Source: an uncultured Woeseiaceae bacterium (GTDB lineage: Bacteria; Pseudomonadota; Gammaproteobacteria; Steroidobacterales; Woeseiaceae). From it: a stretch of DNA of 64,000 nucleotides. Where the stretch lies: the NCBI GenBank assembly GCA_945788625.1, contig CALZMQ010000022.1, positions 30,007 to 94,006 on the forward strand, given 5' to 3'. The position numbers and the translations under genes were made by a program. Shown in pieces: positions 27,979 through 46,896 of the stretch (position 1 is the first letter of the stretch; the number at the start of each line of letters is the position of its first letter). Below the pieces are notes generated by a model, which searched no databases, was not told the DNA's origin, and worked only from the letters and a program-made list of their open reading frames with translations.

Positions 27979-29307
27979 CTATTTGAAAAACGTCTCCATC
28001 TCGTCGTTGAAGGCATCGGCGTCCGAGCTTTGCCGCTGTTCCATGTAATCGATGATCTCGATGGTGTCTTCGTCGACCTCCTCGGTTTCGGCGCTGAGTA
28101 TCGTCGGCGTGATGAGCACTACCGTTTCGGTGTTGACCTTGGTTTGCTCGCGGTTCGAAAACAGGCGCCCGAGGACGGGAATGCGGCCTATTACTGGCAC
28201 TCCGCGTTTGCTTTCCTCAATGCGATGCTTGATGAGTCCGCCGACGAATATGGTTTTGCCGTCCGGCACGATCATTCTGGTCGTTACCTCGGTCGTGGTT
28301 TGCGAGGGAATGCCGGTTATCGGATCGATAATACCGGTACTGACTTCCGGATGGATATCCATCATTACCTTACCGTTTGCATCGACCGACGGGGTTACAC
28401 GGAGAATGACACCCGACTCGAGGAACTCGATGCTCTCGGTCGTTACCTGGTTGATGGTCGTGATGACACTGTAGCCGCGGCGATCGCCGATGATCACCGA
28501 TGATTCCTGGTCTTCGACGGCCAGCAGCTTCGGTGACGACAGGGTGCGCACGCGTCCCTGCGATGTGAGCGCATCCAGTACCGCGGAGATGTCGGTGTTC
28601 GCATAGCTGAAGAACAGTCCCGGGCTACCCGCGTTGCCGAGCCCCTGGGTACCGAACGAGCCGCTGCCACCGTCACTGTCGAAGAATTTCGTCCAGTCGA
28701 GCCCGTACGAGTCCTCGTCGGTGAGCGATACTTCGAGAATCTTGGCCTCGATCAAGATCTGCGTAGGCTGCCTGTCGATTTCGAGCACGAGCGCGGCCGT
28801 CCGATGCAGGAATTCCGGGGTGTCTTCAATCAGAAGAATATTCCTGTCGTTGAAAACAGTGATCTCGCCGTATTCCGAGAGGTAGGGTTGAAGCAGCGAT
28901 TGCATTTCGTCGACAGCGACGTATTGCAGCTCGAAACTTCGGACCTTCGTCAATGTGTCCGGAGCATACTTACCTGCCTCGTCGCGGTCGACAATGAAGT
29001 AGTTACCCTCGTAGTGCTCGACCGCAAGTCCGGCCGCGTTGGCAATTGCGCGAATAGCGTCCGGCAGCGTCATGTCGTAAAGGCTGAAGGAGACTTGTTC
29101 GTTGGAGTCCGTGGAAACGAAGATGTTGACTCGTTGCTCGCGCGAAATCATGTCCATCACGTCAACGAGGTCGGCGTCTCTCATGGTCATGCTGATGCGG
29201 TGCTCGACCTCCTGCGCGCAGGCAAGCGACGAAATCAGGAGGGTTACGGCCAGGAGCCCGTGAACGAAAGTCCTTGTCAGGAAGCCTGGAATTGTATGTC
29301 TACTCAT
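27979..29307 (-). CDS. Secretin (GspD/PilQ/MshL family)
   Basis: C-terminal secretin signature GVPVIGRIPVLGRLFSNREQTKVNTETVVLITPTI, with an N-terminal signal and secretin-N-like domain. Confidence 0.9.
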   Translation of the reverse strand: MSRHTIPGFLTRTFVHGLLAVTLLISSLACAQEVEHRISMTMRDADLVDVMDMISREQRVNIFVSTDSNEQVSFSLYDMTLPDAIRAIANAAGLAVEHYEGNYFIVDRDEAGKYAPDTLTKVRSFELQYVAVDEMQSLLQPYLSEYGEITVFNDRNILLIEDTPEFLHRTAALVLEIDRQPTQILIEAKILEVSLTDEDSYGLDWTKFFDSDGGSGSFGTQGLGNAGSPGLFFSYANTDISAVLDALTSQGRVRTLSSPKLLAVEDQESSVIIGDRRGYSVITTINQVTTESIEFLESGVILRVTPSVDANGKVMMDIHPEVSTGIIDPITGIPSQTTTEVTTRMIVPDGKTIFVGGLIKHRIEESKRGVPVIGRIPVLGRLFSNREQTKVNTETVVLITPTILSAETEEVDEDTIEIIDYMEQRQSSDADAFNDEMETFFK

Positions 29308-29668
29308 TGTCTTCTGCCAAGTTCGGTCTCACGTACACGGTTATCGTTCTGCTGTCTCGTTTGAAAACGGCGTATTCTTCATGGACGGCGACCAGGACGT
29401 AACCTTGAATCTCGTCGCCCGGTTTGAGGATTCGTCCCGCGACGTTCGCGAGCTCGCTGACTTTGCCCACCATGGTGGCTTGCAATTCCAGGGCGACGCC
29501 GGTGTCGTCACCCCGTTCGATGGGGCCACGCTCGCTGCGAATGACTTCGGACGGCGGCCTCGAAAACGGATTGTGCGCAAGGGCGGGCGGCTCGTCGGCC
29601 GCGTGCGCAATCGGAAGCAAAGCGGACAATACCGCAAGGCCGATTGCCCGATAAGCCGCGACCGTCAT
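29300..29668 (-). CDS. PilP/MshK/GspC-HR-like small periplasmic protein
   Basis: Signal peptide, then LQATMVGKVSELANVAGRILKPGDEIQGYVLVAVHEEYAVF, which resembles the PilP/GspC HR beta-domain. Sits immediately upstream of the secretin with an 8-nt overlap. Confidence 0.5.
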   Translation of the reverse strand: MTVAAYRAIGLAVLSALLPIAHAADEPPALAHNPFSRPPSEVIRSERGPIERGDDTGVALELQATMVGKVSELANVAGRILKPGDEIQGYVLVAVHEEYAVFKRDSRTITVYVRPNLAEDNE

Positions 29669-30222
29669 TCCTGCACCCGGTACGAAGCAAGGCTGACCTC
29701 GGCAAGCAGTTTCGGATTGTCGTCAATGGCGTCGCGCCGGCTCATTCCGTACTCCTTGACAACGACGAATCCGAGCTCGTTCTTCGCATCCCAAAGCCAG
29801 CGATAAATATTGTCGTACTCGCCGACCAGTTCGATATTGAAAAGAATCTCGCTGAATACCTGTACCTGCTGCCCCAGGGCCGGCTTCACGCTGACGAGCT
29901 CGACGTCGTTTCGCCACGAGATGTTCTGCAGCCGCCCGATGACGTATGACTCGACCTGCTTCAGGGGAAGGTTGGCCATATCCCCGTGCAGCCGGAACTT
30001 GAGATCTTCGATCTTTGCGTGGCGTTCCTGCAGTTGCTGCTCGAGATTGGCGCTGTTTTGCCGGGCGCCCTCGAGAACGGCAACGGCCCTGGACGTCGCC
30101 CGATACTCCTTGACGACGGGGAGCAGTGCAGCGGTCACCGCGATCGATGTGAGTACCAGGCCAAGCCCCAGGAGAAGCATTCGAAACTCGCGCTCGCCGA
30201 GCTTTTTCAGGGACGACAACAT
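29665..30222 (-). CDS. PilO/GspM/MshJ-like bitopic inner-membrane protein
   Basis: N-terminal TM helix, a coiled coil, then a ferredoxin-like C-terminus. Called from position and architecture. Confidence 0.6.
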   Translation of the reverse strand: MLSSLKKLGEREFRMLLLGLGLVLTSIAVTAALLPVVKEYRATSRAVAVLEGARQNSANLEQQLQERHAKIEDLKFRLHGDMANLPLKQVESYVIGRLQNISWRNDVELVSVKPALGQQVQVFSEILFNIELVGEYDNIYRWLWDAKNELGFVVVKEYGMSRRDAIDDNPKLLAEVSLASYRVQE

Positions 30223-30878
30223 CAGGCACCCTCGATGTCGCTGTTGAGAATAATCGTCAGGTCAAAGCTGACGACGCGGCCGTTCGCATAGTCGATCAGG
30301 GAGGTCCTTTGCACGCTGACGTCCTTGATGTCGGGCTGCTCGAACAGCGAGCGCACGAACGTCGACAACGCCTGGTGATCACGCGCCTGACCTTCCAGCG
30401 ACATATGGGTTTCAACCTGCCAGTCAACTGCTTCGTTGCTGCGATCTTCGGCCGGCACGATCACGAAATAGCCGGTCTCGATGCCGCGCGTCTTTCCGTC
30501 GACGACAACACCGGCTCTGCGGAAGCTCCAATCGACGAACCAGAGATCATCGTCGACCAAAGCGCGGTCGATGATCCTGAAAATATCTTCCACGGCAGCA
30601 CCCGCGCGCAGTCCGCGCAGTTGGGACCAGCGTTGCTCGTATTCTGATTGCCGGGCCGACAGTTGCTCCAGCTGACCCTGCTGTTGCTCTGTAATTGCGC
30701 TCTGCGATTTGAGTTCCTGTACGCGTTCGCTTGCCTGCCGTGACAGGTGTGCGAAAAAGCCGGTGGACGAGAGAATGACGACGTTCAGCACAACAAACGC
30801 GATGAGGTACTGGCGCATCATCGAGCGCCGATTGATCCAGTCTCGGTAATCTTGCGGGATCAGGTCGAGTTCAGCCAC
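30222..30878 (-). CDS. PilN-like (fimbrial assembly/GspL C-terminal half-like) protein
   Basis: LDLIPQDYRD matches the PilN INLLP motif, followed by a TM helix and a coiled coil. Confidence 0.6.
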   Translation of the reverse strand: MAELDLIPQDYRDWINRRSMMRQYLIAFVVLNVVILSSTGFFAHLSRQASERVQELKSQSAITEQQQGQLEQLSARQSEYEQRWSQLRGLRAGAAVEDIFRIIDRALVDDDLWFVDWSFRRAGVVVDGKTRGIETGYFVIVPAEDRSNEAVDWQVETHMSLEGQARDHQALSTFVRSLFEQPDIKDVSVQRTSLIDYANGRVVSFDLTIILNSDIEGA

Positions 30879-32040
30879 GGTCCGTTATCCCCCGTAGCGC
30901 AAGTCCCGTTGCCACGGCGATCTCGGGCGCGGAGCCGCTGGCGTCGGCACGCGCTGCTTTGTCGCTGGCAGGGAATAGCGACAAGGGATCGGGAATTTTC
31001 GAAACTTCCGATCCGGTCAGCGAGCTCAAGAGTTGGTCCGAGCCCGGCCAGCGCGCAATACTTCCCAGCAAATACACCCTGGTAACGCCGCGGCCGCGCG
31101 TTTCGGACGCGGCATACAGAAACGCGCGCTTGATTTCCTCGACGAGTTTCAGGAACTGCGGTTTGAGAATCTCCGACAAGGTATTGAACAGTCCGCTTTC
31201 ATCGATCGCGTCGGATACGACATCGCTGTTCCCGGTTGATTGCACCCCAGTGCGGACGACCAGTTGTCGTGCTGTCTCCTCCGGCATGTCGAGCGTCTCG
31301 CAGATATGCTGGATGAGGCTCTGTTCGCCGACCGCGACTTCCTGGTCGAACAACAAGTCGTTCCCCGATATCAGGGTCAGGTAACTGGCGCGTCTGCCCG
31401 AGTTGATGACGAGAGTATTGGCCGAATCCGATTCGCCGGACATCGCTCGGGCCAGGCGGCTAATCGCCAGCGGCCCGATCTCCAGTGCGGAAACATCCAG
31501 GCCCGCCTTGCGCGCCAATTCCAGGTAGTTGACGACGGGCTCGCGCTCACTGACGGCAACGAGGGCCAGCCGTTCGTCGCTCTTCGAACGGCCCCGCACC
31601 GGCATGTAATCGAGGACGTAATTGCCGAGGTCGCCGTCCAGCCGGTCCTTCATGATGCGTACGATCGCTGCGGCTTCGTTCTTCTCCCCGCCGGCGACCT
31701 GGTAGTTGATTGACACGGTGCGGAACATGCCGGAGGGCATTGCGAGCACCGCCTTGTTGCCGTAAAAGCGGTCCGAATCCAGCGCCTTCCTGACCAGGGA
31801 CCGGAATCGCTGCGGCTGTTCCAGCAGCTCGCGGCGCGAGCCGCCGATGTCCACAGAGGCTCTGGCCCGCACGACGGGCGCGTTTTCGCCGGACCGCTCG
31901 AGTTGCACGAGGTGAACTGCTTCCAGCGCAACGTCCAGCCCGATGGGACCGACCTGCACGGCTGAAGAGCGCCGAAAACTCGTCGCAGACAACGCATTGC
32001 TCAGGAAGTTTCTAACGGCCAAGGCTTCGCCCCACTGCAA
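30871..32040 (-). CDS. PilM-like actin-fold assembly protein (GspL cytoplasmic-domain equivalent)
   Basis: GLDVALEAVHLVQLERSG resembles the PilM GIDIGSSSIKLVEL motif, with actin/FtsA-like length. The TTG start is uncertain. Confidence 0.7.
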   Translation of the reverse strand: MQWGEALAVRNFLSNALSATSFRRSSAVQVGPIGLDVALEAVHLVQLERSGENAPVVRARASVDIGGSRRELLEQPQRFRSLVRKALDSDRFYGNKAVLAMPSGMFRTVSINYQVAGGEKNEAAAIVRIMKDRLDGDLGNYVLDYMPVRGRSKSDERLALVAVSEREPVVNYLELARKAGLDVSALEIGPLAISRLARAMSGESDSANTLVINSGRRASYLTLISGNDLLFDQEVAVGEQSLIQHICETLDMPEETARQLVVRTGVQSTGNSDVVSDAIDESGLFNTLSEILKPQFLKLVEEIKRAFLYAASETRGRGVTRVYLLGSIARWPGSDQLLSSLTGSEVSKIPDPLSLFPASDKAARADASGSAPEIAVATGLALRGITDRG

Positions 32041-32127
32041 AATGACAGCTATCTCTAAATACAGCGGCCGAAAACGTTAAATCTTTAATATTTAGCGGTT
32101 TTTTCGACCCCAATTACCCCGGTATTG

Positions 32128-35100
32128 CTAGGGCGCGCAGGTGATTTCGACGTTGTCGAACCAGACCTTGTTGCTGTTGCTCATACCGCTGTTCGGCGTC
32201 CGGAAACGAATGCGGGTACTCGAGCTCAGTGAGCCTGCGTTCAGCGGGTAGCTGGCGCCGGTATAAGATCCATCGGTCGCCGTACCGATAAAGCGATCGA
32301 GCTCCGACCAATTATCCCCGCCGTCGTAGGAGACCTCGACGGCGACGTAGTCGTTGCTGCCACTCAGGTTCTGGCGACGATAGTCAAAGCTCAGCGTCGC
32401 ACTCGTGGCACCGCTCAGGTCGGCCTCGCGCCACACGGTCTGGCCATCGTCGCGAACCTGCAGCTGGTAGTTGCTGATGTCATTAGCAATTTGAATATCG
32501 CCGCCGGAGGCGCTGGTTGCTTCGCCGGTCTCCTGCCAATCGGTCTTCCAGTTCGTCGAGCCGCCGCCGTAGTTCACGGCATCGAAACTATCGGTGAAGG
32601 GACCATTACAGCCGCCACCACCACCACCGCCGCTACCACCGCCAGCGGTGAATAAATCGGAAACCTCCGTTGCGCTCATCGGATAATCGTAGAGCCGAAT
32701 GTCGTCGAGCATCCCCGGCCAGTAGGTGCCGGCGTCGGGGGTTCCCCCTATCGTGAGCGGTTCGGTATTCGGCAGCGGGTGGTATGGCGTTGTGGTGTTG
32801 TATATCGATGTCCCGTCGACATAAATGTTGATGTCACCTGTGGTGTCATCAAGCGTCGCGGCGACGTGATACCACTGGTTGGTCGTTAGATTCGCGTTGG
32901 TGGTTTGAAACAGCTTCATTCCCGAGCCGTCGTTGAACGCAAATACAATTTCGTCGCTCCAGGTGGTGAGCTGATAGTTCGCTTGCTGCTTCTTTCGTAC
33001 CATCGTCTGGTATACGTTATTCAGAGCGGACGTTTTCAGCCAAAGACTGATCGTCATGTCGGTCAGCGAGAGTGCATCGTCGTGCGGCACATTGACGTAA
33101 TCATCGTTGCCCGGAAAACTAAGCGCATCACCGAGCTGACCTGCCACCCACACCGGGCCATTCGCCAGCGTTCCGTCGTGGCCGCCCTCGGAATCGATTG
33201 CCGTTAGTCCCGTGCCATCATCCAGTTTCCAATGCGCGATCGGACCTGTCGTGGTGGTTTCGGCCGCCAGCGTGGCAATTTCGACGGCGCTCAAGGCGAC
33301 ATCGTAGATGCGCAGGTCATCGAACTTGCCGTGGTAATCGCTGACCCATTGAGGATTTCCGAGTCGCAGGTTGCCGGTATTTGTTGGCGGTGTGAGACCT
33401 GTCGTGTCGCTCAGTACCTCTGTTCCGTCGAGATAGAGCCTGACGGCGTCACCAGAGTTATCGAATACACCGGCGATGTGATACCAGGTTCCTGACTGTA
33501 AGCCGAGTCCGGTGGTCTTGAATTCGATCCAGGCGCCGTCGTACCAGCCAAACGCGAGGTCCCCGTCAACCGTGCCGAAAAAGTAGTTGGAGTCGTAACC
33601 GACCTGGCCCTTATTGAAAATCTGATCGTAATAATCAACGGATGATTTGTTGATCCACGCAGTCAATGTGAATGCATCAGTGAGAGATAGCGATTCATCG
33701 TGCGGTACGACAATTACGTCGTCGACGCCATCGATATCCAGGGCACCATCGAGATAACCTGTACTCCAGGCCGGGCCGTTCTGCAGAGTGCCATTGTGTC
33801 CACCTACTGAATCGAGGGCCGTCGTGCCACTTGTCTCGTCCAGCTTCCAATGTGCAATCGGTCCTGTGTCCGTACTGCCTGCCCCCCACTCGATGGCGCG
33901 CTGCATAATCGTGAGACCGTCATCGGTGAGGAGATTGACGTCGAAATTGTACGATCCCCACGGTAATTTCACGCGGCGCGCCGGCGCCGGCGTACTGTCG
34001 TTGCGTAGCTCTCCGGATTCGAGATAAGCAAGACCCGGGTCGGTTCCACTCAGTTCGCCGAGGACATGCAGGTCGACAGCCAGCGTTCCCTGCAGCACCC
34101 ACATGGACTGGATCGCGGTGGAGAGTTGCACATTGCCGATAGCCAACGTCTCTGTAATGTAGTGAGAATTGTCAGTGAGGTTTATCGAGTCGGTATCGAC
34201 GAACGGGAACAGCGCGAAACCGCCAAGCAGCAACGCGCGCCTGGCCTCTTCTGTAATTACACCAACCGCGAGGTTATCCGCTTTATTGCCAAGCTCGTTC
34301 ATCGGCGTAGTGCCGAGCTCCGGAATGTAGACTACGTCGACTGCTCCTGCTGCCGTATCAAAGGCGGCCTGCGTGTCGGCCGTGGCGATCAGCGATATCG
34401 TGTGCCCCCAGCCCTCCATAAGAGCCTTTTTGTCGGCTTGCTCGATGGTCAGGTTGGCAGTATCACCCACGACCAGCAGGACCTTTTTGCCGTTGCTGGC
34501 CTTGCCCGCCCCCATCGCCCAGTCCAGCGAACGCTGCATAATCAATTGACCGCTGTTGTTGACCTCGGTCCAATCGATCTGCGTGTCGCGCCCGAACGGC
34601 AACATGACACGCCGCCCTGCGGCTGTTCCGCCGGTGGCGGACTTCGCGCCCGCGTCCAGCAAGGTAATCGTCAAACCGCCGCCCCAATCGGCCAGAGACC
34701 GTGCGTCGGGCGCGGGTGTTCCACCGATGGTCAGTCCACCCATGTCGGCGTTGTAGATCTCCAGTGCACCTGCAGCGAACGGCGCCGTGATGTAGTGGTC
34801 AGTATCGGTAACGGTAATACTCCGACCAACGGGCCAGCTACTCGAATTGCCCAATTCGAAGCCGAGTTCATCGTTCATCCAGCCATCTTCGTTGACCACG
34901 CCGATGGGCACGTCGCTCACCTTGGTGCCCAGACTGGTCGGATCGACGGTCTCCGATATATACACGACATCGCGGTCAGCAAGCTTGGTCTCATAGGAGT
35001 TCGCGCCGGCGCCATCGTTTATTACCTCCACGCTGTAGCCCCAGGCCTCGAAAAGAGCTTTCTTGTAGGCGTCTTGCGGATCGCTGAGGTTCGACTCCGC

Positions 35101-37585: not shown

Positions 37586-38014
37586 CTAGAAACCACGTGC
37601 GGTCACGGTCTGAATCGAGTGTACGGTCCCTTCGATTTCGACTCGGATCCAGACGAGATCCGCATCGCCGCCGGTAAACGTGTCGTTGTCGGCATCCGCG
37701 TTGTCGCCGTCATAGAGAGACAGATAGACGAGCAAGCGGACAGGCGGTCCGGCTGGATCGGAATAGCTACTGGGTGTTGTCGGCGCGCCCGCAGCGATCG
37801 CCGCATCCGACAGATCCGCAAACGGCTCGGCGAGCAGTTCCTCGAGTCGCGAGGACAATCGATAATGTCCTGACGCGAGACTCGCGTGAATATCGGTGCC
37901 AACGACGCTGGTCTGCAATGCGTGCATGGCCGGCACCAGGGCGATCGCCAGCAATGCTATCGCGATCAGCACTTCGATTAGCGTAAGACCGCTCTCCATT
38001 CGTCGTACCGTCAC
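37586..38014 (-). CDS. Minor (pseudo)pilin, GspI/PilV-like
   Basis: Prepilin motif ESGLTLIEVLIAIALLAIAL. 142 aa. Confidence 0.75.
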   Translation of the reverse strand: MTVRRMESGLTLIEVLIAIALLAIALVPAMHALQTSVVGTDIHASLASGHYRLSSRLEELLAEPFADLSDAAIAAGAPTTPSSYSDPAGPPVRLLVYLSLYDGDNADADNDTFTGGDADLVWIRVEIEGTVHSIQTVTARGF

Positions 38015-38568
38015 TGGATCGTTACCCGGCCGGTTATTGGGGCCACACTAACGAGGCTCCGTTGATTCCCGTAGCTCAGCTCGATGATTCCATCGCCGAG
38101 CAGATAAGTGGTGGGGCCAGAACCGACAATCCACTTGGGCGTGCCGTAAGCGTCGAAGATCAAACTTCTGCGCCGGCCCAGGCCTGTGAAGTTGAACACG
38201 TCCTGACTGTTACTGATGGTTACGCCTTGAGTGGTTGATCCGGTGGCGACATTGAAATCGTAGGGCTGCTTGTCGACGGGGTGGACCAGGGTATAGAGCG
38301 TGCTGATCGGGGCTGTGGTCATGTCGTACTTGTTGACCGTTACTTTCTGTGTGGCCTGGCTGACCGTAAGCCCATGTTCTTCGCCGGTACGGATTGCTTC
38401 ATCGCGGGCGAAGCGAATCGCGCTTGCGACTTTGTTTGCGGCCAGGTGCAGCCGCTTGTCGTGACTTGACGAGAATCCCGGTACTGCAATAGCAGCGACA
38501 ATTCCGAGAATCGTAATGACGACGACAAGTTCCACCAGCGTATAGCCGCGCTCCACTCGTGCCTTCAT
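38011..38568 (-). CDS. Minor (pseudo)pilin, GspH/FimT-like
   Basis: Prepilin motif RGYTLVELVVVITILGIVAAIAVPGF, then LAANKVASAIRFARDEAIR, which is typical of GspH/FimT. Confidence 0.8.
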   Translation of the reverse strand: MKARVERGYTLVELVVVITILGIVAAIAVPGFSSSHDKRLHLAANKVASAIRFARDEAIRTGEEHGLTVSQATQKVTVNKYDMTTAPISTLYTLVHPVDKQPYDFNVATGSTTQGVTISNSQDVFNFTGLGRRRSLIFDAYGTPKWIVGSGPTTYLLGDGIIELSYGNQRSLVSVAPITGRVTIQ

Positions 38569-38588: not shown

Positions 38589-38658
38589 GGGGACATTCCT
38601 GATTCAGCCTGACCGGGCCAAACCAGGAATGTCCCCATGTGCAATCAGGAATGTCCCC
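38589..38658 (-). terminator. Stem-loop/attenuator between the major and minor pilin genes, with a duplicated 5-prime arm
   Basis: ggggacattcctg (38589-38601) is the exact reverse complement of caggaatgtcccc, which occurs twice (38624-38636 and 38646-58). On the minus-strand RNA the hairpin is followed by GUUUUCG and then the Shine-Dalgarno of the next gene. Confidence 0.5.
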
Positions 38659-38667: not shown

Positions 38668-39180
38668 TTACTCGTCGCCGATGAACTCGCCGGTGACCGA
38701 GTCGAAGCGCCAGCCGCCCGTCGAGCCGCTCGTCAGCCCGAGTACACCGGTGTTGACGACCGCCAGCGTGTTGACCGTGCCGAGCGGGTTCACCGGTAGA
38801 TCGTCCTTCAGGTACGGGCCGTACTTGAACTCGTTCGGGTCCGTACCGGTGCAGGCAAGGCCCGCCGCATTGGTGTAATTCTTGAGCTGGGCGATAAACG
38901 CCGGTTCGCCGACCGCACCGGCGACCGCGACACCGTTTATGCAGGTTGCGCCAGATGACGCGACAGCGCCCGGATACGCGTTGTGCTGTTGCCGGTACAA
39001 ATCGACAGCAGAGCGGATATTGGCGATATTCGTGTCATAGGCCGACTGATTCGCATCGTCCGTGGCTGCCGAGAATTGGGGCACGATGATTGCTGCCAGG
39101 ATTGCCAGGATAATGACGACAATCAGCAACTCCACCAACGTGAAACCATCCTGGTCTCTGGATCTTACAAGCGAAATCAT
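38668..39180 (-). CDS. Major (pseudo)pilin, GspG-like
   Basis: Leader MISLVRSRDQDG, then FTLVELLIVVIILAILAAIIVPQF. The following DTNIANIRSAVDLYRQQHNAYPG resembles the GspG ...LxLYxLDNGxYP motif. A GGGAG Shine-Dalgarno precedes this ATG; the ORF track starts at 39201. Confidence 0.85.
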   Translation of the reverse strand: MISLVRSRDQDGFTLVELLIVVIILAILAAIIVPQFSAATDDANQSAYDTNIANIRSAVDLYRQQHNAYPGAVASSGATCINGVAVAGAVGEPAFIAQLKNYTNAAGLACTGTDPNEFKYGPYLKDDLPVNPLGTVNTLAVVNTGVLGLTSGSTGGWRFDSVTGEFIGDE

Positions 39181-39293: not shown

Positions 39294-40421
39294 TCAGGAA
39301 ACCGCGCGCGACAGCTTGAAGATCGGCAGGATGAGCGAGCTCACGAGTACGCCGACGACGACGCCCATCACGAGCAGCATGATTGGTTCGGCCAGTTTCG
39401 ACAGGGAATCCAGCTTCTTGGCCAACTGGACCTCGTAGTACTCGCAGATTCGCCCGGCTACTTTGCCGAGATTGCCGGTCTGCTCGCCCGTGGCGATCAT
39501 GTGTTTGGCCAACTCGGGCAGGAAGGTGGAGTCGGCGAATCCGGCGGCCACGCCGGCGCCCGCCTGCACGGATTCCTCGACTTTCATTATGAGTTTGCGA
39601 AACAGGGAGTTGCGCACAACGTCGCGGCAGGCTTCGAGGCTCTCCATGACCGAAACGCCGTTATTGAGCGACAGGCTGAGCACCTGCAGCGACTGCACGA
39701 GATAGATCTGCGTGAAGATGTCACGCAGCCCCGGCGTGCGCAGCTTCATGCGATCGACCGTCGTCACGCCACCGTCGCTGGCCAGCCACTGACGCAGCCC
39801 GACGACAAAGACACCGAGCCCGCCCAGCAGGACGAACCAGTACTGGCGCAACAGATCGCTCACGGCCATGAGTGCTTTCGTGGACATGGGCAGCTGGTCG
39901 TAGATCGACTCGAACATATCGCCGAATTTCGGAAACACGGCGACCAGCACGAACACGACGACTGCGAGCGAGAACGCGATCAGGAACATCGGGTAGGTGG
40001 CTGCCGACACCAGGGTGTTGCGTAACTGCTCGCGTTTCTGGTCCATGTGCAGCAACTGCTCGAGGACTTCGTGCATGAAGCCGCCGGCCTCGCTGGCCGA
40101 AATCAGGTTGACGTAGGTCGAGGAGAAAATGTGGTCGTGATCGGCCAGGGCGCTGCCGAACGAGCGACCTTCACTGATGTTCTGTGCGACGGTTTCGACC
40201 ACGGAACGCATTTCCGCGTTCTCGGTTTGTTTGACGATCGTAGTCAGTGCGCCGAACAGGCTCTCACCCGTTTCGAGCAACAGCGCAAGTTGTTCCGTGA
40301 AGAACATGCGGTCCGATGCGCTGGCACGCCTGCCGTTTCCCGGCATGCGCAGTTTGAAGCCGGCGTCTTCGTTGCCGCCGGTAGTCTCCTCGAGTTCTTC
40401 AGTGTCAAGTTGAATCGCCAA
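39294..40421 (-). CDS. GspF/PilC/MshG-family inner-membrane platform protein
   Basis: Two T2SSF repeats. A TTG at 40421 just after the ATPase stop is the likely start; the 402-aa track ORF overlaps the ATPase gene by 71 nt. Confidence 0.85.
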   Translation of the reverse strand: MAIQLDTEELEETTGGNEDAGFKLRMPGNGRRASASDRMFFTEQLALLLETGESLFGALTTIVKQTENAEMRSVVETVAQNISEGRSFGSALADHDHIFSSTYVNLISASEAGGFMHEVLEQLLHMDQKREQLRNTLVSAATYPMFLIAFSLAVVVFVLVAVFPKFGDMFESIYDQLPMSTKALMAVSDLLRQYWFVLLGGLGVFVVGLRQWLASDGGVTTVDRMKLRTPGLRDIFTQIYLVQSLQVLSLSLNNGVSVMESLEACRDVVRNSLFRKLIMKVEESVQAGAGVAAGFADSTFLPELAKHMIATGEQTGNLGKVAGRICEYYEVQLAKKLDSLSKLAEPIMLLVMGVVVGVLVSSLILPIFKLSRAVS

Positions 40422-40431: not shown

Positions 40432-42459
40432 CTAGGTGCTGGTGGCGCGCGAGACTTCCTCGATCGTGGTCTTGCGATCGAGCGCCCGCTGCAGGCCGTC
40501 ATGGAAAAGGTTATGGAAGCCGCGGCGGTCGAGGTAATCGCTCAGCTCGTCACGAGTCGGGCTGGAGATAATCAGTTTCTGCAGGTCGACGTCCGTCTTC
40601 AGTACTTCGTGTATGCCGATGCGGCCCTTGTGCCCCGAGTCATAGCATTGCTCGCAGCCTTTACCTTTCGCGAGCTTGACGTCGCCCTGGTCCTGCCAAC
40701 CGTATTGCTGCACGAGCTCGGGCGGCGCGAGAAACTCGTACTTGCAGTTGGAGCATATCGTTCGCACCAGGCGCTGGCCGACGACGCCGAGCAGTGCAGA
40801 CGACAGGAGATAGGGCTCGACGCCCATATCGATGAGGCGCGTAATCGCGCCGACCGCGTCGTTGGTATGCAGGGTCGAGAGAACGAGATGACCGGTCAGC
40901 GCGGCCTGCACCGCAATTTCCGCGGTCTCGCGTTCACGGATCTCGCCGACCATGACGATGTCCGGGTCCTGCCTGAGTACGTGTTTAAGAATCTTCGCGA
41001 ACGACAGCCCTATGCCGTCGCGGACTTCGTTCTGGTTGATGATGTCGAGCTGATACTCTACCGGGTCTTCGATCGTGACGATGTTCTTCTCGATACTCTT
41101 CAAGTAGTTGAGGGCCGCGTACAGGCTCGTCGTCTTGCCGCTTCCGGTCGGTCCGGTTACGAGAATGAGGCCGTGACTCGCATCGAGGAGATTCTTGAAT
41201 ATGCCTAAGTTGTCGCTCGCCATGTTGAGCTTGTTGACGTCGAGTATCGCCTGGTTCTTGTCGAGTATTCTCAACACCACCTTTTCGCCGTACAGGCCGG
41301 GCAGGGAGCTGAATCTGAGGTCGACCGAGCGCCCCTGCGTGTGCACCTGGATGCGGCCGTCCTGTGGCATGCGCCGCTCGGCGATATCGAGGTTTGCCAT
41401 AACTTTCAGGCGGGAGATCAGCGCCGGGTGCAGTTCCACGCGCGGTGCGGTGAATTCGTACAATAGACCGTCGATGCGAAAACGGATACGCGAGTGCGTG
41501 CGAAACGGCTCGAGGTGTATATCCGATGCGCCGTCATGGACCGCGCGCTGAATGATGGAATTCACCAGGTTTACGACAGGGCTGCCGGCAGCGACTTCAT
41601 CGATCGTCGAGTGATCCTCGATCTGCATGCTTTCGACGACGGCAAAGTCCTCGTCGACGTCGCCGACCATGTCGAACTGCATGTCGGCAATGCCGAGCGA
41701 TTCGCTCAGGAGTTTCTGGATGTCCTGTTTGCGCGCCAGCACGGGCCGGACCTCGCACTGCAGACGCTCGGAGACTTCCTCGAAAGTCGGCATGTCCTGC
41801 GGTTTCGCGGTTGCCAGGTACAGGACGCTGCGCACCCTGAAGATCGGCATGACGCAGAGGCGTCGCGCGACGCCGACATCGAGCGTCGCCGCGGTGGTGG
41901 GGTCGAAGAGTCCCGGGCGCAGGCGCACGAACGGTACGCCGAGCTGCTCTCCCAGCGCGCGCAGGACGTCATACTCCTCGACCCATCCCTTGTCGATAAT
42001 GATTCGGCCCATGCGTTTGCCGAGACGATCCTGGAGTTTCAATGCCTCGTCGATTCTCGCCTGGGGCCTCGAGCCGGGACCGAAGCTCACGTCGTCCGGA
42101 TCTTTGCGTTCCTGGCGCCCATCGCTGTCGAGAAAGGAAATGTAGTCCGAAAGGCCGGTGATCGCGGCGATTTCGCCGATAATGGAGTTGTGAGTCGTGA
42201 TCTTGACCCAGCCGCCGATTTTCATCAGGCGATCCTGGAGGTCCGCAAGGCAGGACAGGGCCAGGCTGTCGATCGTCTGCACCGCGGAGAAGTCGATAAT
42301 GATCTTTGAATCGCCGGCGTCGATGGATTCGTCGATGGCCAGCATCAGGTCTTGCAGCGCGTCGTTGCCGACCAGCGAAAACTTCGGCGTCACATGTGTC
42401 GCGACACCGATTCTTACGCGGGCAATGGCCGACGATGCCGTTTTTGCGGGCTCGTTCAT
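40432..42459 (-). CDS. GspE/PilB/MshE-family secretion ATPase with an N-terminal STAS (anti-sigma-antagonist-like) domain
   Basis: Residues ~20-110, KIIIDFSAVQTIDSLALSCLADLQDRLMKIGGWVKITTHNSIIGEIAAITGLSDYISF, fit the STAS pattern. A GspE_N-type domain follows (RMGRIIIDKGWVEEYDVLRALGEQLGVPFV). Walker A GPTGSGKTT and the tetracysteine CSNC...CEQC are present. ATGA overlap with the upstream gene. Confidence 0.9.
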   Translation of the reverse strand: MNEPAKTASSAIARVRIGVATHVTPKFSLVGNDALQDLMLAIDESIDAGDSKIIIDFSAVQTIDSLALSCLADLQDRLMKIGGWVKITTHNSIIGEIAAITGLSDYISFLDSDGRQERKDPDDVSFGPGSRPQARIDEALKLQDRLGKRMGRIIIDKGWVEEYDVLRALGEQLGVPFVRLRPGLFDPTTAATLDVGVARRLCVMPIFRVRSVLYLATAKPQDMPTFEEVSERLQCEVRPVLARKQDIQKLLSESLGIADMQFDMVGDVDEDFAVVESMQIEDHSTIDEVAAGSPVVNLVNSIIQRAVHDGASDIHLEPFRTHSRIRFRIDGLLYEFTAPRVELHPALISRLKVMANLDIAERRMPQDGRIQVHTQGRSVDLRFSSLPGLYGEKVVLRILDKNQAILDVNKLNMASDNLGIFKNLLDASHGLILVTGPTGSGKTTSLYAALNYLKSIEKNIVTIEDPVEYQLDIINQNEVRDGIGLSFAKILKHVLRQDPDIVMVGEIRERETAEIAVQAALTGHLVLSTLHTNDAVGAITRLIDMGVEPYLLSSALLGVVGQRLVRTICSNCKYEFLAPPELVQQYGWQDQGDVKLAKGKGCEQCYDSGHKGRIGIHEVLKTDVDLQKLIISSPTRDELSDYLDRRGFHNLFHDGLQRALDRKTTIEEVSRATST

Positions 42460-44663
42460 GCCGAGACGGCGATGGCGCCTGCTTTGAGGCCATCCAGTAT
42501 TTCGATGATGGGAACCGGTTTGCCGATGCCGAATCCCTGCACGTAGTCGACACCGATTACACGGAGGGCTTCTTTCGTTTCTGCATCGCCAACGAATTCG
42601 GCGACCATCGAAAGTTGCATGGTTCTGCCGATCTGACAGATGGCCTCGACCATGGATTCCGACACTTCGTCCGTCGTAATCTCGCGGACGAAGCTGCCGT
42701 CGATCTTGAGGTAGTCCACCGGGAGTACCTTGAGATAGCCGAACGAACTCAGGCCCGCGCCGAAGTCGTCGAGGGAGAAGCGGCAGCCGATCTCACGCAA
42801 CGCGGTCATGAAGCGGACGGCATCGTCAATATTCGATATCGCCGCCGTCTCGGTCACCTCGAAGCAGATATTCTGCGCCGGTACTCCGGATTGCCGAATT
42901 TCATCGACGATAAAGGACTGGAATCCAGGATTGGCAAACGACTGCCCTGACAGATTGATGCAGAACACGGGTTCGTGAGTCGCTATCTCGGACCAGCCCT
43001 CACCGAGCGACACCAGCGCGTTGTGCACGACCCAACGGTCGACCAGGGGCATGAGCTGGTAGCGCTCGGCGGCCGGCAGGAACACGTTGGGGCCCAGAAT
43101 TTCGCCCTCTTCGCCGCGCAAGCGTATCAAAAGTTCGAAATGCGGAGATTTCGACTGATCCAGCAGCGGCAACACAGGCTGGCAATAGAGCGTGAAGCGA
43201 TCGCTGCGCAGGGCATCCTGGACACGGCCGATCCATTCGATCTCTTCGCTTCTGCGTACCAGCGTCGTATTGTCTTGTTCGAAAATCTGGATGCGGTCCC
43301 GGCCTTCTTCCTTGGCTGCCTTGCAGGCAATTTCGGCCGCAGCCATGACGCCGACGATACCGTCGGTATCACGGTTGACCTGGGCGATCCCGACGCAGGC
43401 GGATACGTCCAGCGTTCGCTGCGCTGACACGACGGTCAGCTCGTGAATGGCGCCGCGCAGTTTTTCCGCGACGGAAAAACCCTGGCGAATATCGCAGTTG
43501 AGCAGCAATACGCCGAACTCGCCGCCGCCTATGCGTGACATGACGTCCGCTTCGCGCAGAACGCCGGTCATGGTCCTGGCAACCCGGCGAATGAGCGCGT
43601 CGCCCTCCTGGTATCCCATGAGATCGTTGACGACATGCAGCTGATCGATGTTTATGTGCAACAAACAGTGCTGCAGGCTCTTGCTTTGCGTGCTGGCGAG
43701 CGACGCGATGAGCGATGACTCGAAACCGCTGCGGTTCATCAGGCCCGTCAGGGAGTCGTGATGTGTATGGATGATGCGGGACGCTTTCTTCGCCATGACC
43801 TCGAGGAGGTTGCGGTCGCCGTTCGAGAACGTGTGCATGTCGTGCCGCGCCACGACGGCCAGCAAACCGATTGCCGTGCCATGATTGTCGATGACGGGAT
43901 AAGCGAGCAGGTTTTCGTTTCTGCCTTCGAACAGGTGAATACGCTCTTCAGCATCCGTCGCGTTGAGAACGACGCTCTGAACCTGCGACTCGACGCGGTC
44001 GTATATGGTCGTTGCCAGCAATTCGAGCAGCTGTTCGACGCCAGGGGGCGATTCGGTGCCGTTGACGTTGTGGATTTTCAAGCCACGGTCCCTGCAGATA
44101 AGGGCGGCGAGGCCGACATCCAGGTAGTCCGCACAATTGTGGACCAGCCTGACCAGCGCTTCCTGGCCTTCTTCGAAAAATTCGACCTGGTCTTTCGTCG
44201 AATAGACGAGATTGAGTTCCTCGTAGCGTTCGCCGAGCTCGGCGGCGAGCTGGTTGCATTCCGACTGCAGTTCGATCTCTTCCTGCAGGAATACCGTCGC
44301 GTCTGCAAAAGCACGGCGCAACGGCTCGGGAGCGGTCTCCATCGCGATACTGGGTTGCGTATCGTAGGTTGTGATTAACCACCCGATGGGGCCGTAGTCT
44401 TTCTGTGCGAGAGACACTCGAAACTGCATCCGCGTATCGGGCAACTGGCGCTTTTCGATGCCCGCTCCGAACGGCGACCAGACCACGACCGGATTGTCGT
44501 CCTGCGTTTCTGCGTCGGTCTGCCCTGCTACCGGAGGCAACCAGGCCCAGAACGACTCACCCTGGCGATCGCGGATTTCGAGGCCGGCGACGCCGGGAAA
44601 CACACGCGGCAACAGCCGCGCGTATTTCTGCATCGACAACGATTTGAGGATTCTCGCGCTCAC
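42456..44663 (-). CDS. GGDEF-EAL protein: degenerate cyclase motif (GGGEF) with an intact RxxD I-site, and an apparently competent EAL phosphodiesterase
   Basis: READVMSRIGGGEFGVLL. The EAL domain carries FELLIR, EVTE, DDFGAG, KIDGSF and QGF. A GAF-like N-terminal region is present. GTGA overlap with the receiver gene. Confidence 0.9.
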   Translation of the reverse strand: MSARILKSLSMQKYARLLPRVFPGVAGLEIRDRQGESFWAWLPPVAGQTDAETQDDNPVVVWSPFGAGIEKRQLPDTRMQFRVSLAQKDYGPIGWLITTYDTQPSIAMETAPEPLRRAFADATVFLQEEIELQSECNQLAAELGERYEELNLVYSTKDQVEFFEEGQEALVRLVHNCADYLDVGLAALICRDRGLKIHNVNGTESPPGVEQLLELLATTIYDRVESQVQSVVLNATDAEERIHLFEGRNENLLAYPVIDNHGTAIGLLAVVARHDMHTFSNGDRNLLEVMAKKASRIIHTHHDSLTGLMNRSGFESSLIASLASTQSKSLQHCLLHINIDQLHVVNDLMGYQEGDALIRRVARTMTGVLREADVMSRIGGGEFGVLLLNCDIRQGFSVAEKLRGAIHELTVVSAQRTLDVSACVGIAQVNRDTDGIVGVMAAAEIACKAAKEEGRDRIQIFEQDNTTLVRRSEEIEWIGRVQDALRSDRFTLYCQPVLPLLDQSKSPHFELLIRLRGEEGEILGPNVFLPAAERYQLMPLVDRWVVHNALVSLGEGWSEIATHEPVFCINLSGQSFANPGFQSFIVDEIRQSGVPAQNICFEVTETAAISNIDDAVRFMTALREIGCRFSLDDFGAGLSSFGYLKVLPVDYLKIDGSFVREITTDEVSESMVEAICQIGRTMQLSMVAEFVGDAETKEALRVIGVDYVQGFGIGKPVPIIEILDGLKAGAIAVSA

Positions 44664-45049
44664 TGCGCCGCCACCGGCCTGTCGGGTTGCTCGAGGCTCT
44701 TGCCGATATAGGACACCAGGCGCCGCACGCTGACCGGTTTTTCCATGAACAACAGGTTGTCGATGCCCGTGGTCCAGGTGCGGTGCTCAATCTCCGTTCG
44801 CGATGTCAGTACAACGATTGGAAACGTCCTGTCCGGGAACTGCTCTTCGATTGTAAGGCAGAGTTCCTTGCCGCCCATACGCGGCATATCGATATCCGTG
44901 ATCAGGAAATCGGGATGGCCGTTGCATAGCTTCACCAGGCATTCGGAGCCGTTCGCCGCAGTGTCGACGTCATAGCCGGCGTCCTCGATACCGAGTTTCA
45001 ACACGCGCACGACCGGTGGGTGATCGTCGACAATGAGAATTCGTTTCAT
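44660..45049 (-). CDS. Stand-alone CheY-like receiver protein
   Basis: MKRILIVDDHP...FLITDIDMPRMGG...MEKP. 129 aa with no output domain. Confidence 0.9.
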   Translation of the reverse strand: MKRILIVDDHPPVVRVLKLGIEDAGYDVDTAANGSECLVKLCNGHPDFLITDIDMPRMGGKELCLTIEEQFPDRTFPIVVLTSRTEIEHRTWTTGIDNLLFMEKPVSVRRLVSYIGKSLEQPDRPVAAQ

Positions 45050-45051
45050 AC

Positions 45052-46896
45052 CTAGATAACCTGTTTAACCGCGGTCGACTCGGCCCAGAGATTGATGATG
45101 AATTCGGCACCTTCGTCCCGGTCCCGATTGAGCGACAGCGTGCCGTGATGTAATTCGACGATTTGCCTCGCAAGCGCTAACCCCAGGCCATGACCCCCGA
45201 TCGCCTGAACTCGCTCATCAGCAGAGCGGTAAAACTTGTCGAAGATGCGGGCTTCCTCGGCGTCGCTGATGCCGATGCCGGTGTCGGCAACGCGAACCTG
45301 TACGGCGTCGCCGGTGTCTTCGAGCGTCACGGTCACCTTGCCGTCTTCCTTGTTGTACTTGACGGCATTGCTCATCAGGTTGGTGATGGCGACGCGAATG
45401 AGGTCCTTGTCCACCATGACCGGGTTCATTTCCTTCGGCACGTCGAGTTCGAGATCGCAGTTCGTGCCGGCGGCCATGTAGCAGGCCTCGTCATAGGCCG
45501 CGCGGACGACGTCCTGCAGTTTCACGAGGCTCCGCTCGGGCGAGATGCTGCCGCTCTCGATCTGGGTCATGTTCAGCAACCCGGTAATCAGGGTGCCCAA
45601 TCGGTCGACCTCTGCAGCGATGACGTTGGCCGCCTCGATCTGGTGTTCCCTCGACTTGCCTGCATCGCTCAAGAGCGACTCGCTGTAAAGGCCGAGTACG
45701 TTGAGCGGCGACTTCAGCTCGTGGGACAGGTGGGAGACAAACTCGGTTCTCGCTTTCCTGGCGAGTGCCTCCTGGGTTTCGTCGCGAAAAACAATCAGCG
45801 TGCCGATGGCGGATGCCGGGTTCTTCGGCGAGAACAGGGGATAGGTCTTCGTGGCGATCGACTTCGAGTACGCGGTTCGCGTATCGAAGCGAATGGTCTC
45901 GCTGAAGTTGCGCGAATTGCGCTTTGCCTGGAACTTCATGATGAGATCGAGCACGTCGGGGTGCTCGCACCAGCTTTGCGGCGCCTGGGACAACAGCGTT
46001 TCCTGCGTCACGTCGAACAGCGCGGCGAGCTTCTGGTTAGCAAACGTAACGGTCCCCGATTCGTCGAGAATCATTACGGCCTCGGGCAGGGTTTCGAGCA
46101 CCGTTTCAACGCGGTTTTTGCGGTAGGTCAGCAGCTTGCTGGAGGTGAGCAGGCGGTCCTTGTCCTGCTCCAGCAACTGGATCTTCGAGGAGGCCATCTC
46201 GACGAAGTGGTTGAAACGCCGCATGAACTCGCCGAGTTCACCGGTCGCCGAGACTTGCACCGACTGGAAGCCGTCGCCATCGATCAGCTTGCTGATCTCG
46301 TCGTTGGCGGCCCTGATTGGCCGCACTTCCATTCTCAGCAGGAAGTAGAAGAACGGGGCAAGCAGGAAAACGGGCAGTGCGACCATGGCGAGGAATGGCA
46401 TCTGCGCGAGGCTGAGTCCGGCTGACGGGTGGAGGTAGCCAAGCCGAACGAAACCCCTCAAGTCGCCGTCTTGCAGGAGCGGCGCATGGAATTCGATGAA
46501 GCGCTGGTCGCCCGAGCGTAGTTCCATATTGCCGAGCCAGGCGCTGGGTTCTGCCGGGATTTTCGCCACTGGCACAATCGAACCGCCGGCCGCGGCTTCC
46601 GCCACGGTGCGGCCGTCGCCGTCGCTGATCGTTACATAAGCGAGCCGTGTATTCGCGGCACCGTGGTGCAGCGCCTGTACGACGCCCTGCTGCTGGCCGC
46701 CCGGAACGAGCTGCTCGTAGGGTATGGCCGATATCGCGCGGGCCAGGCTCACACCCTGCGTGCGAATCTCCGCCAGCTGGTCGTCCTTCTGGTTTTGAAA
46801 CAGCAAAAACACTATCGTTGCTATAGCAAGCAATGATGCAACCACGACGACGAGGCCAATTCGATCGGCTTTTGGCAACGGACTAATCCAATTCAA
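45052..46896 (-). CDS. Membrane sensor histidine kinase (periplasmic loop, HAMP, PAS, HisKA, HATPase)
   Basis: H-box SHELKSPLN, N box NLMSNAVKYN, G boxes DTGIGI and GHGLGL. Two TM segments. TTG start. Confidence 0.9.
   Translation of the reverse strand: MNWISPLPKADRIGLVVVVASLLAIATIVFLLFQNQKDDQLAEIRTQGVSLARAISAIPYEQLVPGGQQQGVVQALHHGAANTRLAYVTISDGDGRTVAEAAAGGSIVPVAKIPAEPSAWLGNMELRSGDQRFIEFHAPLLQDGDLRGFVRLGYLHPSAGLSLAQMPFLAMVALPVFLLAPFFYFLLRMEVRPIRAANDEISKLIDGDGFQSVQVSATGELGEFMRRFNHFVEMASSKIQLLEQDKDRLLTSSKLLTYRKNRVETVLETLPEAVMILDESGTVTFANQKLAALFDVTQETLLSQAPQSWCEHPDVLDLIMKFQAKRNSRNFSETIRFDTRTAYSKSIATKTYPLFSPKNPASAIGTLIVFRDETQEALARKARTEFVSHLSHELKSPLNVLGLYSESLLSDAGKSREHQIEAANVIAAEVDRLGTLITGLLNMTQIESGSISPERSLVKLQDVVRAAYDEACYMAAGTNCDLELDVPKEMNPVMVDKDLIRVAITNLMSNAVKYNKEDGKVTVTLEDTGDAVQVRVADTGIGISDAEEARIFDKFYRSADERVQAIGGHGLGLALARQIVELHHGTLSLNRDRDEGAEFIINLWAESTAVKQVI

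Follow-up and report, generated by a model that had tools for sequence, protein, structure and literature searches.

We examined 64,000 nucleotides from an uncultured Woeseiaceae bacterium (GenBank assembly GCA_945788625.1, contig CALZMQ010000022.1), hereafter the window, in which positions 27979-46896 of the minus strand hold 15 co-oriented, densely packed genes, as judged from open reading frame (ORF) positions and domain calls (Pfam and NCBIfam models with curated equivalog cut-offs). We concluded that these genes are one intact operon for a self-contained type IV filament machine that fits no named family. The core proteins all missed the equivalog cut-offs of type II secretion systems (T2SS), the type IVa pilus (T4aP), and the mannose-sensitive haemagglutinin (MSH) pilus. 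A sequence-only reading of this DNA had placed a complete type IV filament locus outside the canonical layouts, and this was borne out, as were its gene positions, order, and strand; however, it had counted 16 genes where there are 15. The locus is a real and conserved variant that had not been named before; it falls within the type IV filament superfamily and does not constitute a new category of machine. With a probability of roughly 0.55, we read its sequence as that of an adhesive filament, gated by signals, that would attach the cell to polysaccharide or particle surfaces, work like an MSH pilus, and belong to an unnamed lineage within the T4aP/MSH/T2SS radiation. The features of the operon are given below in gene order; a slash within a motif marks the prepilin cleavage site.

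45052..46896, minus strand: membrane sensor histidine kinase, the first gene of the operon (Pfam HATPase_c 94, HisKA 50, and PAS 28 bits)
44660..45049, minus strand: stand-alone CheY-like receiver (Pfam Response_reg 79.6 bits), 2 nt after the kinase gene and with a 4-nt GTGA overlap with the next gene
42456..44663, minus strand: GAF-GGDEF-EAL protein with a degenerate GGDEF motif (Pfam EAL 199 and GGDEF 100 bits)
40432..42459, minus strand: extension ATPase of 675 aa with STAS, MshEN, and a T2SSE core (Pfam T2SSE 444, MshEN 46.8, and STAS 30.9 bits)
39294..40421 (longest ORF to 40502), minus strand: inner-membrane platform protein F, a divergent member of the GspF/PilC/MshG family (Pfam T2SSF 155.8 bits, two repeats)
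38668..39180 (longest ORF to 39201), minus strand: major pilin G, 170 aa (Pfam N_methyl 35.7 bits)
38589..38636, minus strand: in the G-H spacer, GC-rich hairpin of 20-21 bp and, after it, a short U tract (GUUUUCGUGG; terminator scan)
38011..38568, minus strand: minor pilin H of the GspH/FimT family, G/YTLVE (Pfam GspH 24.1 bits, cut-off 21; N_methyl 32 bits)
37586..38014, minus strand: minor pilin in the I position, G/LTLIE (N_methyl 30 bits; weak PilV 23 and GspI 22.6 bits)
36600..37583, minus strand: minor pilin in the J position, G/FTLVE (N_methyl 34 bits)
32128..36603, minus strand: giant K-position subunit of 1,491 aa (Pfam Laminin_G_3 188 and CBM96 107 bits; DNRLRE 144 bits)
30871..32040 (start TTG 32040 or GTG 31959), minus strand: PilM-type cytoplasmic actin-like protein (Pfam PilM_2 64.3 bits, cut-off 27)
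30222..30878, minus strand: PilN-type bitopic protein (Pfam PilN 27.9 bits, cut-off 22.8), with an 8-nt overlap with the PilM gene
29665..30222, minus strand: PilO/GspM-type bitopic protein (Pfam PilO 19.4 bits, below 22; NCBIfam GspM_XpsM 21.4 bits, below 60), its position kept in all loci
29300..29668, minus strand: small periplasmic PilP/MshK/GspC-HR-like protein of 122 aa (signal peptide, invariant NPFxRP, C-terminal beta domain), hereafter P
27979..29307, minus strand: short secretin, 442 aa (Pfam Secretin 126 and Secretin_N 35 bits)

All 15 ORFs are intact and translational coupling is kept. A base-by-base check identified eight overlapping junctions (five 4-nt ATGA/GTGA, two 8-nt, and one 1-nt) and 2-nt gaps at two others; the sequence-only reading was right on the five ATGA/GTGA junctions and the two gaps, but had put the overlaps at about ten. 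The ATPase/F junction is a 10-nt gap with the F start TTG 40421, which agrees with the 372-375-aa calls in relatives, and a 71-nt overlap with the longest ORF. Larger spacers are confined to the flanks of the major pilin gene and the region before PilM (K-PilM gap, 87-168 nt). The G-H spacer is 99 nt, as had been given. However, the 92 nt given for the F-G spacer apply to the longest G ORF; the 170-aa start (ribosome-binding site GGGAGA), which is used in NCBI and in all homologues, gives 113 nt. The earlier statement that the 64-kb window lacks a prepilin peptidase and PilT held: Pfam searches of the remaining ORFs gave neither Peptidase_A24 nor PilT, and tblastn with A24 and PilT reference proteins was likewise negative. 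When the window was searched by tblastn with references for GspL/M/C/I/J/K, A24 peptidase, and PilT, the ATPase self-match was the only match. The locus is complete save for the peptidase, and MSH loci are likewise without one (PMC6668835) and borrow it.

When one genome per GTDB species was searched with a PilM profile, 29 related loci were recovered, in 27 Woeseiaceae-like metagenome-assembled genomes (MAGs), one Desulfuromonadales MAG, and one Pseudomonadales MAG. When the window proteins were mapped onto the related loci (L numbers below), the order was the same throughout. Synteny over approximately 30 independent loci rules out chance. We put the spread of the locus at approximately 29 Woeseiaceae species and two further orders, and regard its lineage as typical of Woeseiaceae, throughout which the operon is kept. 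PilM had 538 homologues, nearly all Woeseiaceae-like, and for the ATPase, PilM, and the pilin, the closest homologues were all from Woeseiaceae or unclassified gammaproteobacterial MAGs. Two outlying loci were also recovered. The distant L040 (Logan SRR33375164) has an MSH-like order, PilMNOP-secretin-x-kinase-ATPase-F-pilins, and no giant K. In L041 (JGI 3300023283), an orphan STAS-MshEN-ATPase lies beside a HisKA-receiver-guanylate cyclase gene and an FHA protein.

The extension ATPase lies outside the named families. Both ATPase models were calibrated on reference proteins from annotated records. The window protein scored 558.8 on the GspE model TIGR02533 (cut-off 630.25) and 546 on the PilB model TIGR02538 (cut-off 675.65), a GspE-minus-PilB difference of +13; MshE-type ATPases gave -2 and +17. 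Four reference GspE proteins scored 692, 691, 635, and 606 on the GspE model, the canonical ones being +145 to +170 over PilB, and the ATPase of the Xps-order Comamonas locus gave +65. A neighbour-joining tree of 380 core columns with a PilT outgroup included GspE references from Vibrio, Acinetobacter, Pseudomonas, Ralstonia, and Escherichia, PilB references from Acinetobacter, Neisseria, Geobacter, and Myxococcus, and MshE references from Aeromonas and a Legionella MSH-type locus. All STAS-bearing ATPases, including those of L040 and L041, formed one separate clade with 94% bootstrap. This tree recovered PilB (99%), MshE (99%), and canonical GspE (75-90%), and the STAS clade was outside all three. 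The window ATPase, with its N-terminal STAS fusion, belongs to this monophyletic, unnamed STAS-MshEN-T2SSE clade. Its weak sister was MshE (21% bootstrap), and its core identity to MshE (41-44%) was below that to GspE or PilB. We place the STAS-ATPases outside the named clades and claim no specific branching order. Similarly, platform F was 23-27% identical to GspF, PilC, and MshG references alike, scored 273 on the GspF equivalog (cut-off 424), and formed its own clade with 91% bootstrap (neighbour-joining). The names GspE and GspF used in the sequence-only reading were therefore not supported by the trees.

Several PLSDB "plasmid" records (NZ_AP026896.1, NZ_CP064203.1, NZ_CP119142.1, and others) are mislabelled chromosomes of 2-5 Mb (Aeromonas caviae, Acinetobacter baumannii, and Neisseria gonorrhoeae); they supplied reference MSH, T2SS, and T4aP genes.

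The STAS score of the ATPase exceeds the Pfam cut-off of 22.6, and the STAS region also matched an anti-sigma antagonist structure. The N-terminal STAS + MshEN module is rare, with 32 clusters (50% identity, E <= 1e-30) among 1.84 billion representatives; in most of them, the match begins within the first 20 query residues. In the literature searched, we found no published description of a STAS fusion to an extension ATPase and no paper pairing STAS with MshEN. Among the ATPase relatives aligned, the STAS domain contains a nearly invariant Ser, which we take to be the phospho-Ser site of SpoIIAA-type STAS proteins.

Five proteins of the locus have prepilin-type N termini. G, H, I, and J share G/[FYL]TL[VI]E with Glu5, whereas K lacks Glu5; this is the H/I/J/K pattern described in PMC13533445, in which the lack of Glu5 is the hallmark of the apical GspK/PilK/PilX subunit. 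Major pilin G has a 12-residue leader, the cleavage site G/FTLVE, and two invariant Cys. It matched the GspG model over residues 19-78 only (54 bits, cut-off 88.85), and the match to Pfam T2SSG (20.1 bits, cut-off 21) covered the helix only. The GspG-like character attributed to it earlier is thus limited to the generic N-terminal helix. H was the sole pilin to pass a specific model (Pfam GspH), and it scored 49.6 on the GspH equivalog (cut-off 80). In hhalign comparisons, the I profile aligned with GspI references over the N-terminal 40 columns only and the J profile with GspJ references over 70 N-terminal columns only. Since only this generic helix was matched, we regard the names I and J as positional, and the earlier labels, GspI-like and GspJ-position, reflect the helix. 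J also has an Asp-rich insert of approximately 130 residues (residues ~110-240) with DxDxDG-type repeats. In 15 homologues, many of its Asp and Gly columns do not vary; this insert is a probable Ca2+-binding module.

The giant K starts as a GspK/PilX-type prepilin (QQRG/YLLIT, no Glu5). The N terminus is followed by two CBM96/DNRLRE domains, two repeats of approximately 200 aa without a family, two LamG domains, and a MAM/choice-of-anchor-J-like C-terminal domain (choice_anch_J, E = 4.4e-4, 20.5 bits, below the cut-off of 30). The extreme C terminus is ...VWFDNVEITCAP, and the homologue consensus is ...VWFDN[IV]EIxCxP. In the 17 K homologues recovered (~1,120-1,660 aa), the N-terminal QRG/[YF]xx without Glu5 was present in 14 and the C-terminal motif in 10, and the middle part varied in length and domains. 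Conserved ends around a variable middle fit an adhesin that supplies its own C-terminal strand. GspK and CpaL are reported to supply their own strand, whereas MshQ, in the published model, is a PilY1/PilC-like tip protein and donates its strand to a separate PilK homologue, MshP (PMC13533445). DUF6701, which PGAP annotates in a Vibrio MSH locus on a fragment downstream of mshP and which we took as the MshQ marker, was absent from K; the Vibrio taketomensis "plasmid" MSH locus is pseudogenised and unfit as a reference. We concluded that K is a GspK-type tip pilin fused to lectin-like domains and not an MshQ homologue; the sequence-only reading had called it MshQ-like in size and LamG content. 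K is better likened to CpaL of Tad (type IVc) pili, a minor-pilin-like tip subunit that has its adhesin domain within one polypeptide and supplies a C-terminal strand of its own (PMC13533445). However, the Tad filament family is unrelated to that of the locus, and the likeness is one of logic, with no sequence similarity expected. The K fusion is also in line with a recent model in which tips assemble by C-terminal strand addition.

The sequence-only reading had described PilM and PilN as split, as in T4aP, and this was correct: they are separate genes (PilM_2 64 bits, PilN 28 bits), the split is real, and the 8-nt overlap is kept. PilM did not reach the cut-off of TIGR01175 (76.6 against 133). 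The PilN N terminus carries the motif [IL]DLIPxDYR, the core of which, DLIPx[DES]YR, is present in the window and in 13 of the 13 related loci checked; the residue before the core is usually Ile or Leu, otherwise Met or Val or none. The PilN of T4aP binds PilM through an INLLP peptide, which this motif resembles. P had no Pfam, NCBIfam, or PDB sequence match, and its profile gave nothing meaningful against PDB sequences. By hhalign, the P profile aligned with the MshK-position protein of a Legionella MSH-type locus, the only MshK protein compared, at 95% probability over 101 columns (full length), and with the XpsC-position protein of the Comamonas/Skermanella T2SS at 92% over the beta domain. 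The secretin consists of a signal peptide, an N0-like region, one Secretin_N domain, the secretin domain, and an acidic tail; AMIN and N2/N3 domains were not found by Pfam. It scored below the cut-offs of PilQ (TIGR02515, 181.9 against 284), GspD (167 against 351), and MshL (TIGR02519, 144.9 against 250.2), and its best PDB matches were Myxococcus xanthus PilQ (107 bits), then XcpQ (88).

The Xanthomonas T2SS has the order xpsE, xpsF, xpsGHIJKLMCD (PMC11981180), and PulL/GspL is accepted to be a PilM-PilN fusion (PMC10191384). When PilM and PilN are read as L, PilO as M, and P as C, the order E-F-G-H-I-J-K-[M+N]-O-P-secretin is collinear with Xps and with the plasmid T2SS loci of Comamonas odontotermitis and Skermanella mucosa. 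Since GspL is a PilM-PilN fusion, the genes that look type IV pilus-like occupy the L-M-C-D slots, and a more fitting description of the mixture is an Xps-type layout in which L is unfused. The T2SS-like pilin order reported earlier is therefore correct, but the likeness is not limited to the pilins and extends over the whole order.

This collinearity points to another reading, a variant Xps-layout T2SS with a GspL that either remained or became split into PilM and PilN, in which G forms a short periplasmic pseudopilus and a carbohydrate-binding H-I-J-K tip engages and pushes cargo (glycoproteins or polysaccharide, perhaps the neighbouring 1,562-aa HYR-repeat protein) through the secretin. In addition to the order from the ATPase to the terminal secretin, the locus shares with Xps one major subunit with H, I, J, and a Glu5-less K, and a small HR-type protein before the secretin. 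H passes the GspH Pfam cut-off, O matches GspM_XpsM slightly better than PilO, and the G helix is best matched by GspG. The high conservation of G is expected of a pseudopilin, the window has no PilT, and in the window as well as in the three closest loci, the secretin is followed by the co-oriented HYR-repeat protein. However, the GspE, GspF, GspD, and GspG equivalog scores are all far below the cut-offs, the ATPase has a score profile unlike that of true GspE and carries STAS and MshEN, and the ATPase and platform are in clades of their own, outside GspE in the case of the ATPase. L is unfused and its PilN part carries a PilM-binding-type N-terminal motif; no fused GspL and no GspC PDZ or coiled coil was found (P shares only the HR-type beta domain), and the GspL, GspK, and GspJ profiles gave no match. 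With its single N-domain, the secretin lacks N2/N3, and a kinase/receiver/GGDEF-EAL module is attached to the locus. K, which is four to five times longer than in Xps, is a modular lectin-bearing protein of 1,100-1,660 aa that varies between species and looks adhesin-like. Moreover, the MSH-like module order of L040 indicates that the Xps order is not fixed in the clade, and the HYR protein is absent beside most loci. We consider this secretion reading to be somewhat unlikely, yet a serious rival to the adhesive filament.

It is very improbable that the locus encodes an ordinary pilus of the MSH family whose genes have been rearranged. Similar to the MSH pili of Vibrio, Aeromonas, and Shewanella, its ATPase has the MshEN receptor domain for cyclic di-GMP (c-di-GMP) and scores equally on the GspE and PilB models, and its clade is the weak sister of MshE. 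The small MshK-like P aligns over its full length with the MshK-position protein, prepilin peptidase and PilT are both absent from the locus, the minor pilins are followed by a large LamG protein tied to the tip pilins, and c-di-GMP-controlled surface attachment is the likely role. In contrast, the secretin fails the MshL model (145 against 250), and no mshM (AAA ATPase), mshN (TPR), or mshF gene was found between or beside the 15 genes, whereas the MSH-type loci of Legionella and Aeromonas contain them. The ATPase is outside the MshE clade, its identity to MshE is lower than that to GspE or PilB, and MshE has no STAS fusion. The tip adhesin is fused to K, a pilin fusion without DUF6701, whereas MSH has separate MshP and MshQ, and the gene order differs except in the distant L040.

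The locus shares with T4aP the separate PilM and PilN, PilO/PilP-like partners, a secretin, and an H-I-J-K-type priming set. However, it is one compact operon, while T4aP genes are scattered, the PilB and PilQ models fail, the secretin lacks AMIN, and the major pilin is highly conserved. Neither PilT nor a separate PilY1/PilC tip adhesin was found in the 64-kb window. Twitching-motility genes have been reported at other sites in Woeseiaceae MAGs (PMC12175321). Curated score cut-offs and tree position led us to reject plain MSH, canonical T2SS, and canonical T4aP alike.

The upstream genes may provide the signal. Genes for the kinase, receiver, and GGDEF-EAL protein are upstream in every related locus in which that side is visible, and the kinase gene is also upstream of the ATPase in L001, L002/L017, L023, and L040. 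In a motif scan of the GAF-GGDEF-EAL protein, the cyclase motif was GGGEF, as the sequence-only reading had correctly marked as degenerate, and the RxxD I-site was kept (READ). The EAL motifs ELLIR and DDFGAGLS are intact, and the protein is likely a phosphodiesterase. The relatives L001, L002, and L023 have GGDEF; relative to these three, only this genome shows the degeneracy. In 19 related loci, an additional GGDEF gene lies between K and PilM; the window and its nearest subclade lack it. With the c-di-GMP-binding motif as defined in PMC5013675, both 24-residue MshEN motifs, the canonical five residues apart, were found in 10 of the 10 aligned relatives (673-686 aa). In the window ATPase, motif II is intact (RMGRIIIDKGWVEEYDVLRALGEQ), but an in-frame deletion of 11 residues (33 nt) between R131 and P132 (DNA ~42066/42067) removes the first half of motif I, and LGDILVxxxLI is missing. 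Full-length ATPase homologues among the matches listed are 684-690 aa, compared with 675 aa in the window. The source is a MAG, and the 33-nt deletion could be real or an assembly error.

As read from these motifs, three c-di-GMP features are degraded in comparison with relatives. Because of the motif I deletion, GGGEF, and the lack of the internal cyclase gene, c-di-GMP synthesis and sensing at the locus appear to be weakened in this genome. The same three independent changes suggest a system that is decaying or rewired in this genome, with the c-di-GMP layer lost and either constitutive control by the kinase and STAS or pseudogenisation under way. However, the 15 ORFs and the EAL motifs are intact, translational coupling is kept, and the deletion is in frame and possibly a MAG assembly error. 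We regard decay as improbable; it would modify rather than replace the adhesive filament reading.

The hairpin after G may also contribute to regulation. The G-H spacer folds with a minimum free energy of -51 kcal/mol (z = -5.8). Among 19 related loci folded, 15 have the same hairpin after G, with changes on both arms, and L001, L002, L023, and L029 are without it. No further copy of the motif was found in the 64-kb window, and Rfam gave no family match. The hairpin probably acts as a partial terminator or as an mRNA stabiliser and would in this way set the ratio of major to minor pilins. A spare left arm (GGGGACATTCC) lies at 38648-38658 (within 38589-38658, minus strand), and the relatives L003, L027, and L030 have a spare right arm instead. 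The spare arm could allow alternative pairing, and may act as an attenuator-like switch.

We infer the following mechanism for the adhesive filament. A prepilin peptidase encoded elsewhere would cut all five pilins, G to K, behind the conserved Gly. H-I-J-K would form the priming tip, with the Glu5-less K at the apex; since K carries the lectin-type domains (CBM96/DNRLRE, LamG, and MAM-like), tip pilin and tip adhesin would be one protein. G would polymerise beneath this tip on platform F, driven by the hexameric STAS-MshEN ATPase docked on the unfused PilM-PilN-PilO-PilP alignment complex, and the filament would exit through the short secretin. The hairpin after G would keep major-pilin transcripts in excess. 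The upstream kinase, receiver, and GGDEF-EAL protein would set the signal. In relatives, MshEN with both motifs intact would read c-di-GMP, and the STAS domain with its conserved Ser may add a partner-switch type of input; in this genome, the c-di-GMP inputs are presumably weakened. We favour the adhesive filament because of the variable lectin-rich tip fusion, the c-di-GMP/MshEN-type control, and the mostly surface-attached hosts. Woeseiaceae are reported to live mostly attached to surfaces in marine sediments, biofilms, and particles (PMC12175321).

Several observations weigh against this reading. The G homologues are 170 aa and 77-94% identical, and G is the most conserved protein of the locus, with a median identity of 78% compared with 73% for the ATPase, 43% for K, and 39% for H. 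A highly conserved major subunit is a pattern that periplasmic T2SS pseudopilins typically show and that exposed pilins seldom do. The conservation of G and the Xps gene order are the two strongest points against the adhesive filament; either would suit a periplasmic pseudopilus and hence a variant T2SS. The sequence shows the gene content and order, the conservation, the motifs, and the separate clades, whereas assembly order, exposure on the surface, adhesion, and regulation are inferred. An AlphaFold2 model of G (32 homologues of at least 77% identity, a shallow alignment) was unusable (pLDDT 50.8, pTM 0.29). H, I, J, and K are all absent from L002/L017 (Woeseia sp. OFTM247) and L023, which retain the kinase, receiver, GGDEF-EAL, ATPase, F, G, PilMNOP, and secretin; in L002/L017, a 98-aa ORF and a GGDEF gene lie between G and PilM. 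The absence of H-I-J-K in two lineages means that the adhesin is dispensable for keeping the machine. With MshEN motif I truncated and GGDEF mutated, c-di-GMP gating may not operate here. Moreover, the trees are neighbour-joining trees of 12-22 taxa, and their deep nodes are without resolution.

The same evidence allows a broader reading, which we hold to be rather doubtful: the locus may represent a distinct unnamed family of type IV filament machines, with a STAS-gated, c-di-GMP-reading ATPase and a pilin-adhesin tip fusion, that preserves an intermediate between pili and secretion systems. The intermediate state would consist of the Xps/T2SS order, a pseudopilin-like conserved G, and an ancestral unfused PilM/PilN platform. 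If this is correct, the locus would be a living model for the origin of T2SS from T4aP-like ancestors and would provide a new partner-switch (STAS) input into filament extension. Classification schemes leave hundreds of "generic" systems unassigned (PMC6668835), and this locus is probably one of the systems left generic by current models. Its interest lies mainly in the STAS-ATPase fusion, the pilin-adhesin fusion, and the intermediate layout. The operon unites features by which pili and secretion systems are usually told apart: an unfused PilM/PilN stands against the Xps order, and a conserved G against a tip that is variable and adhesin-like. It is therefore useful for testing classification schemes and ideas on the derivation of T2SS from T4aP. 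The natural variants (loci without minor pilins, with or without the internal cyclase, and with a truncated c-di-GMP motif) form a comparative series. The attachment machinery of Woeseiaceae has so far been known just from automatic annotation.

The gene downstream of the secretin and a separate exopolysaccharide-type cluster directly upstream of the filament operon (47680-51707, minus strand) are as follows.

23080-27768, minus strand: secreted HYR-repeat protein of 1,562 aa, co-oriented, 210 nt downstream of the secretin (HYR domains; weak PxKF ("rightmost") C-terminal match)
47680-49239, minus strand: PgaC-like GT2 synthase
49092-50207, minus strand: HEAT-repeat protein
within 50137-51846, minus strand: TPR + YaiO-family outer-membrane barrel, the first ~190 ORF codons of which are probably not real
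51288-51707, minus strand: receiver of the exopolysaccharide cluster

The HYR-repeat protein contains approximately 18 tandem copies of a 15-nt unit encoding NPELI (24986-25253). It is found downstream of the secretin in L004, L007, and L027 only, and could be a cargo or co-adhesin. The exopolysaccharide cluster resembles Nfr/Pga-type synthase-porin systems and is not kept beside the filament locus in L001 and L002. Between this cluster and the filament operon lies a gene for a 243-aa protein (46938-47669, plus strand) with N- and C-terminal hydrophobic segments and no family match; an overlapping 246-aa ORF on the minus strand (46893-47633) looks spurious. Farther away, a DUF222-domain protein (3246-4643, minus strand, 82 bits) is encoded in a stretch with a GC content of 0.55, compared with approximately 0.60 elsewhere, and may be a remnant of a mobile element.

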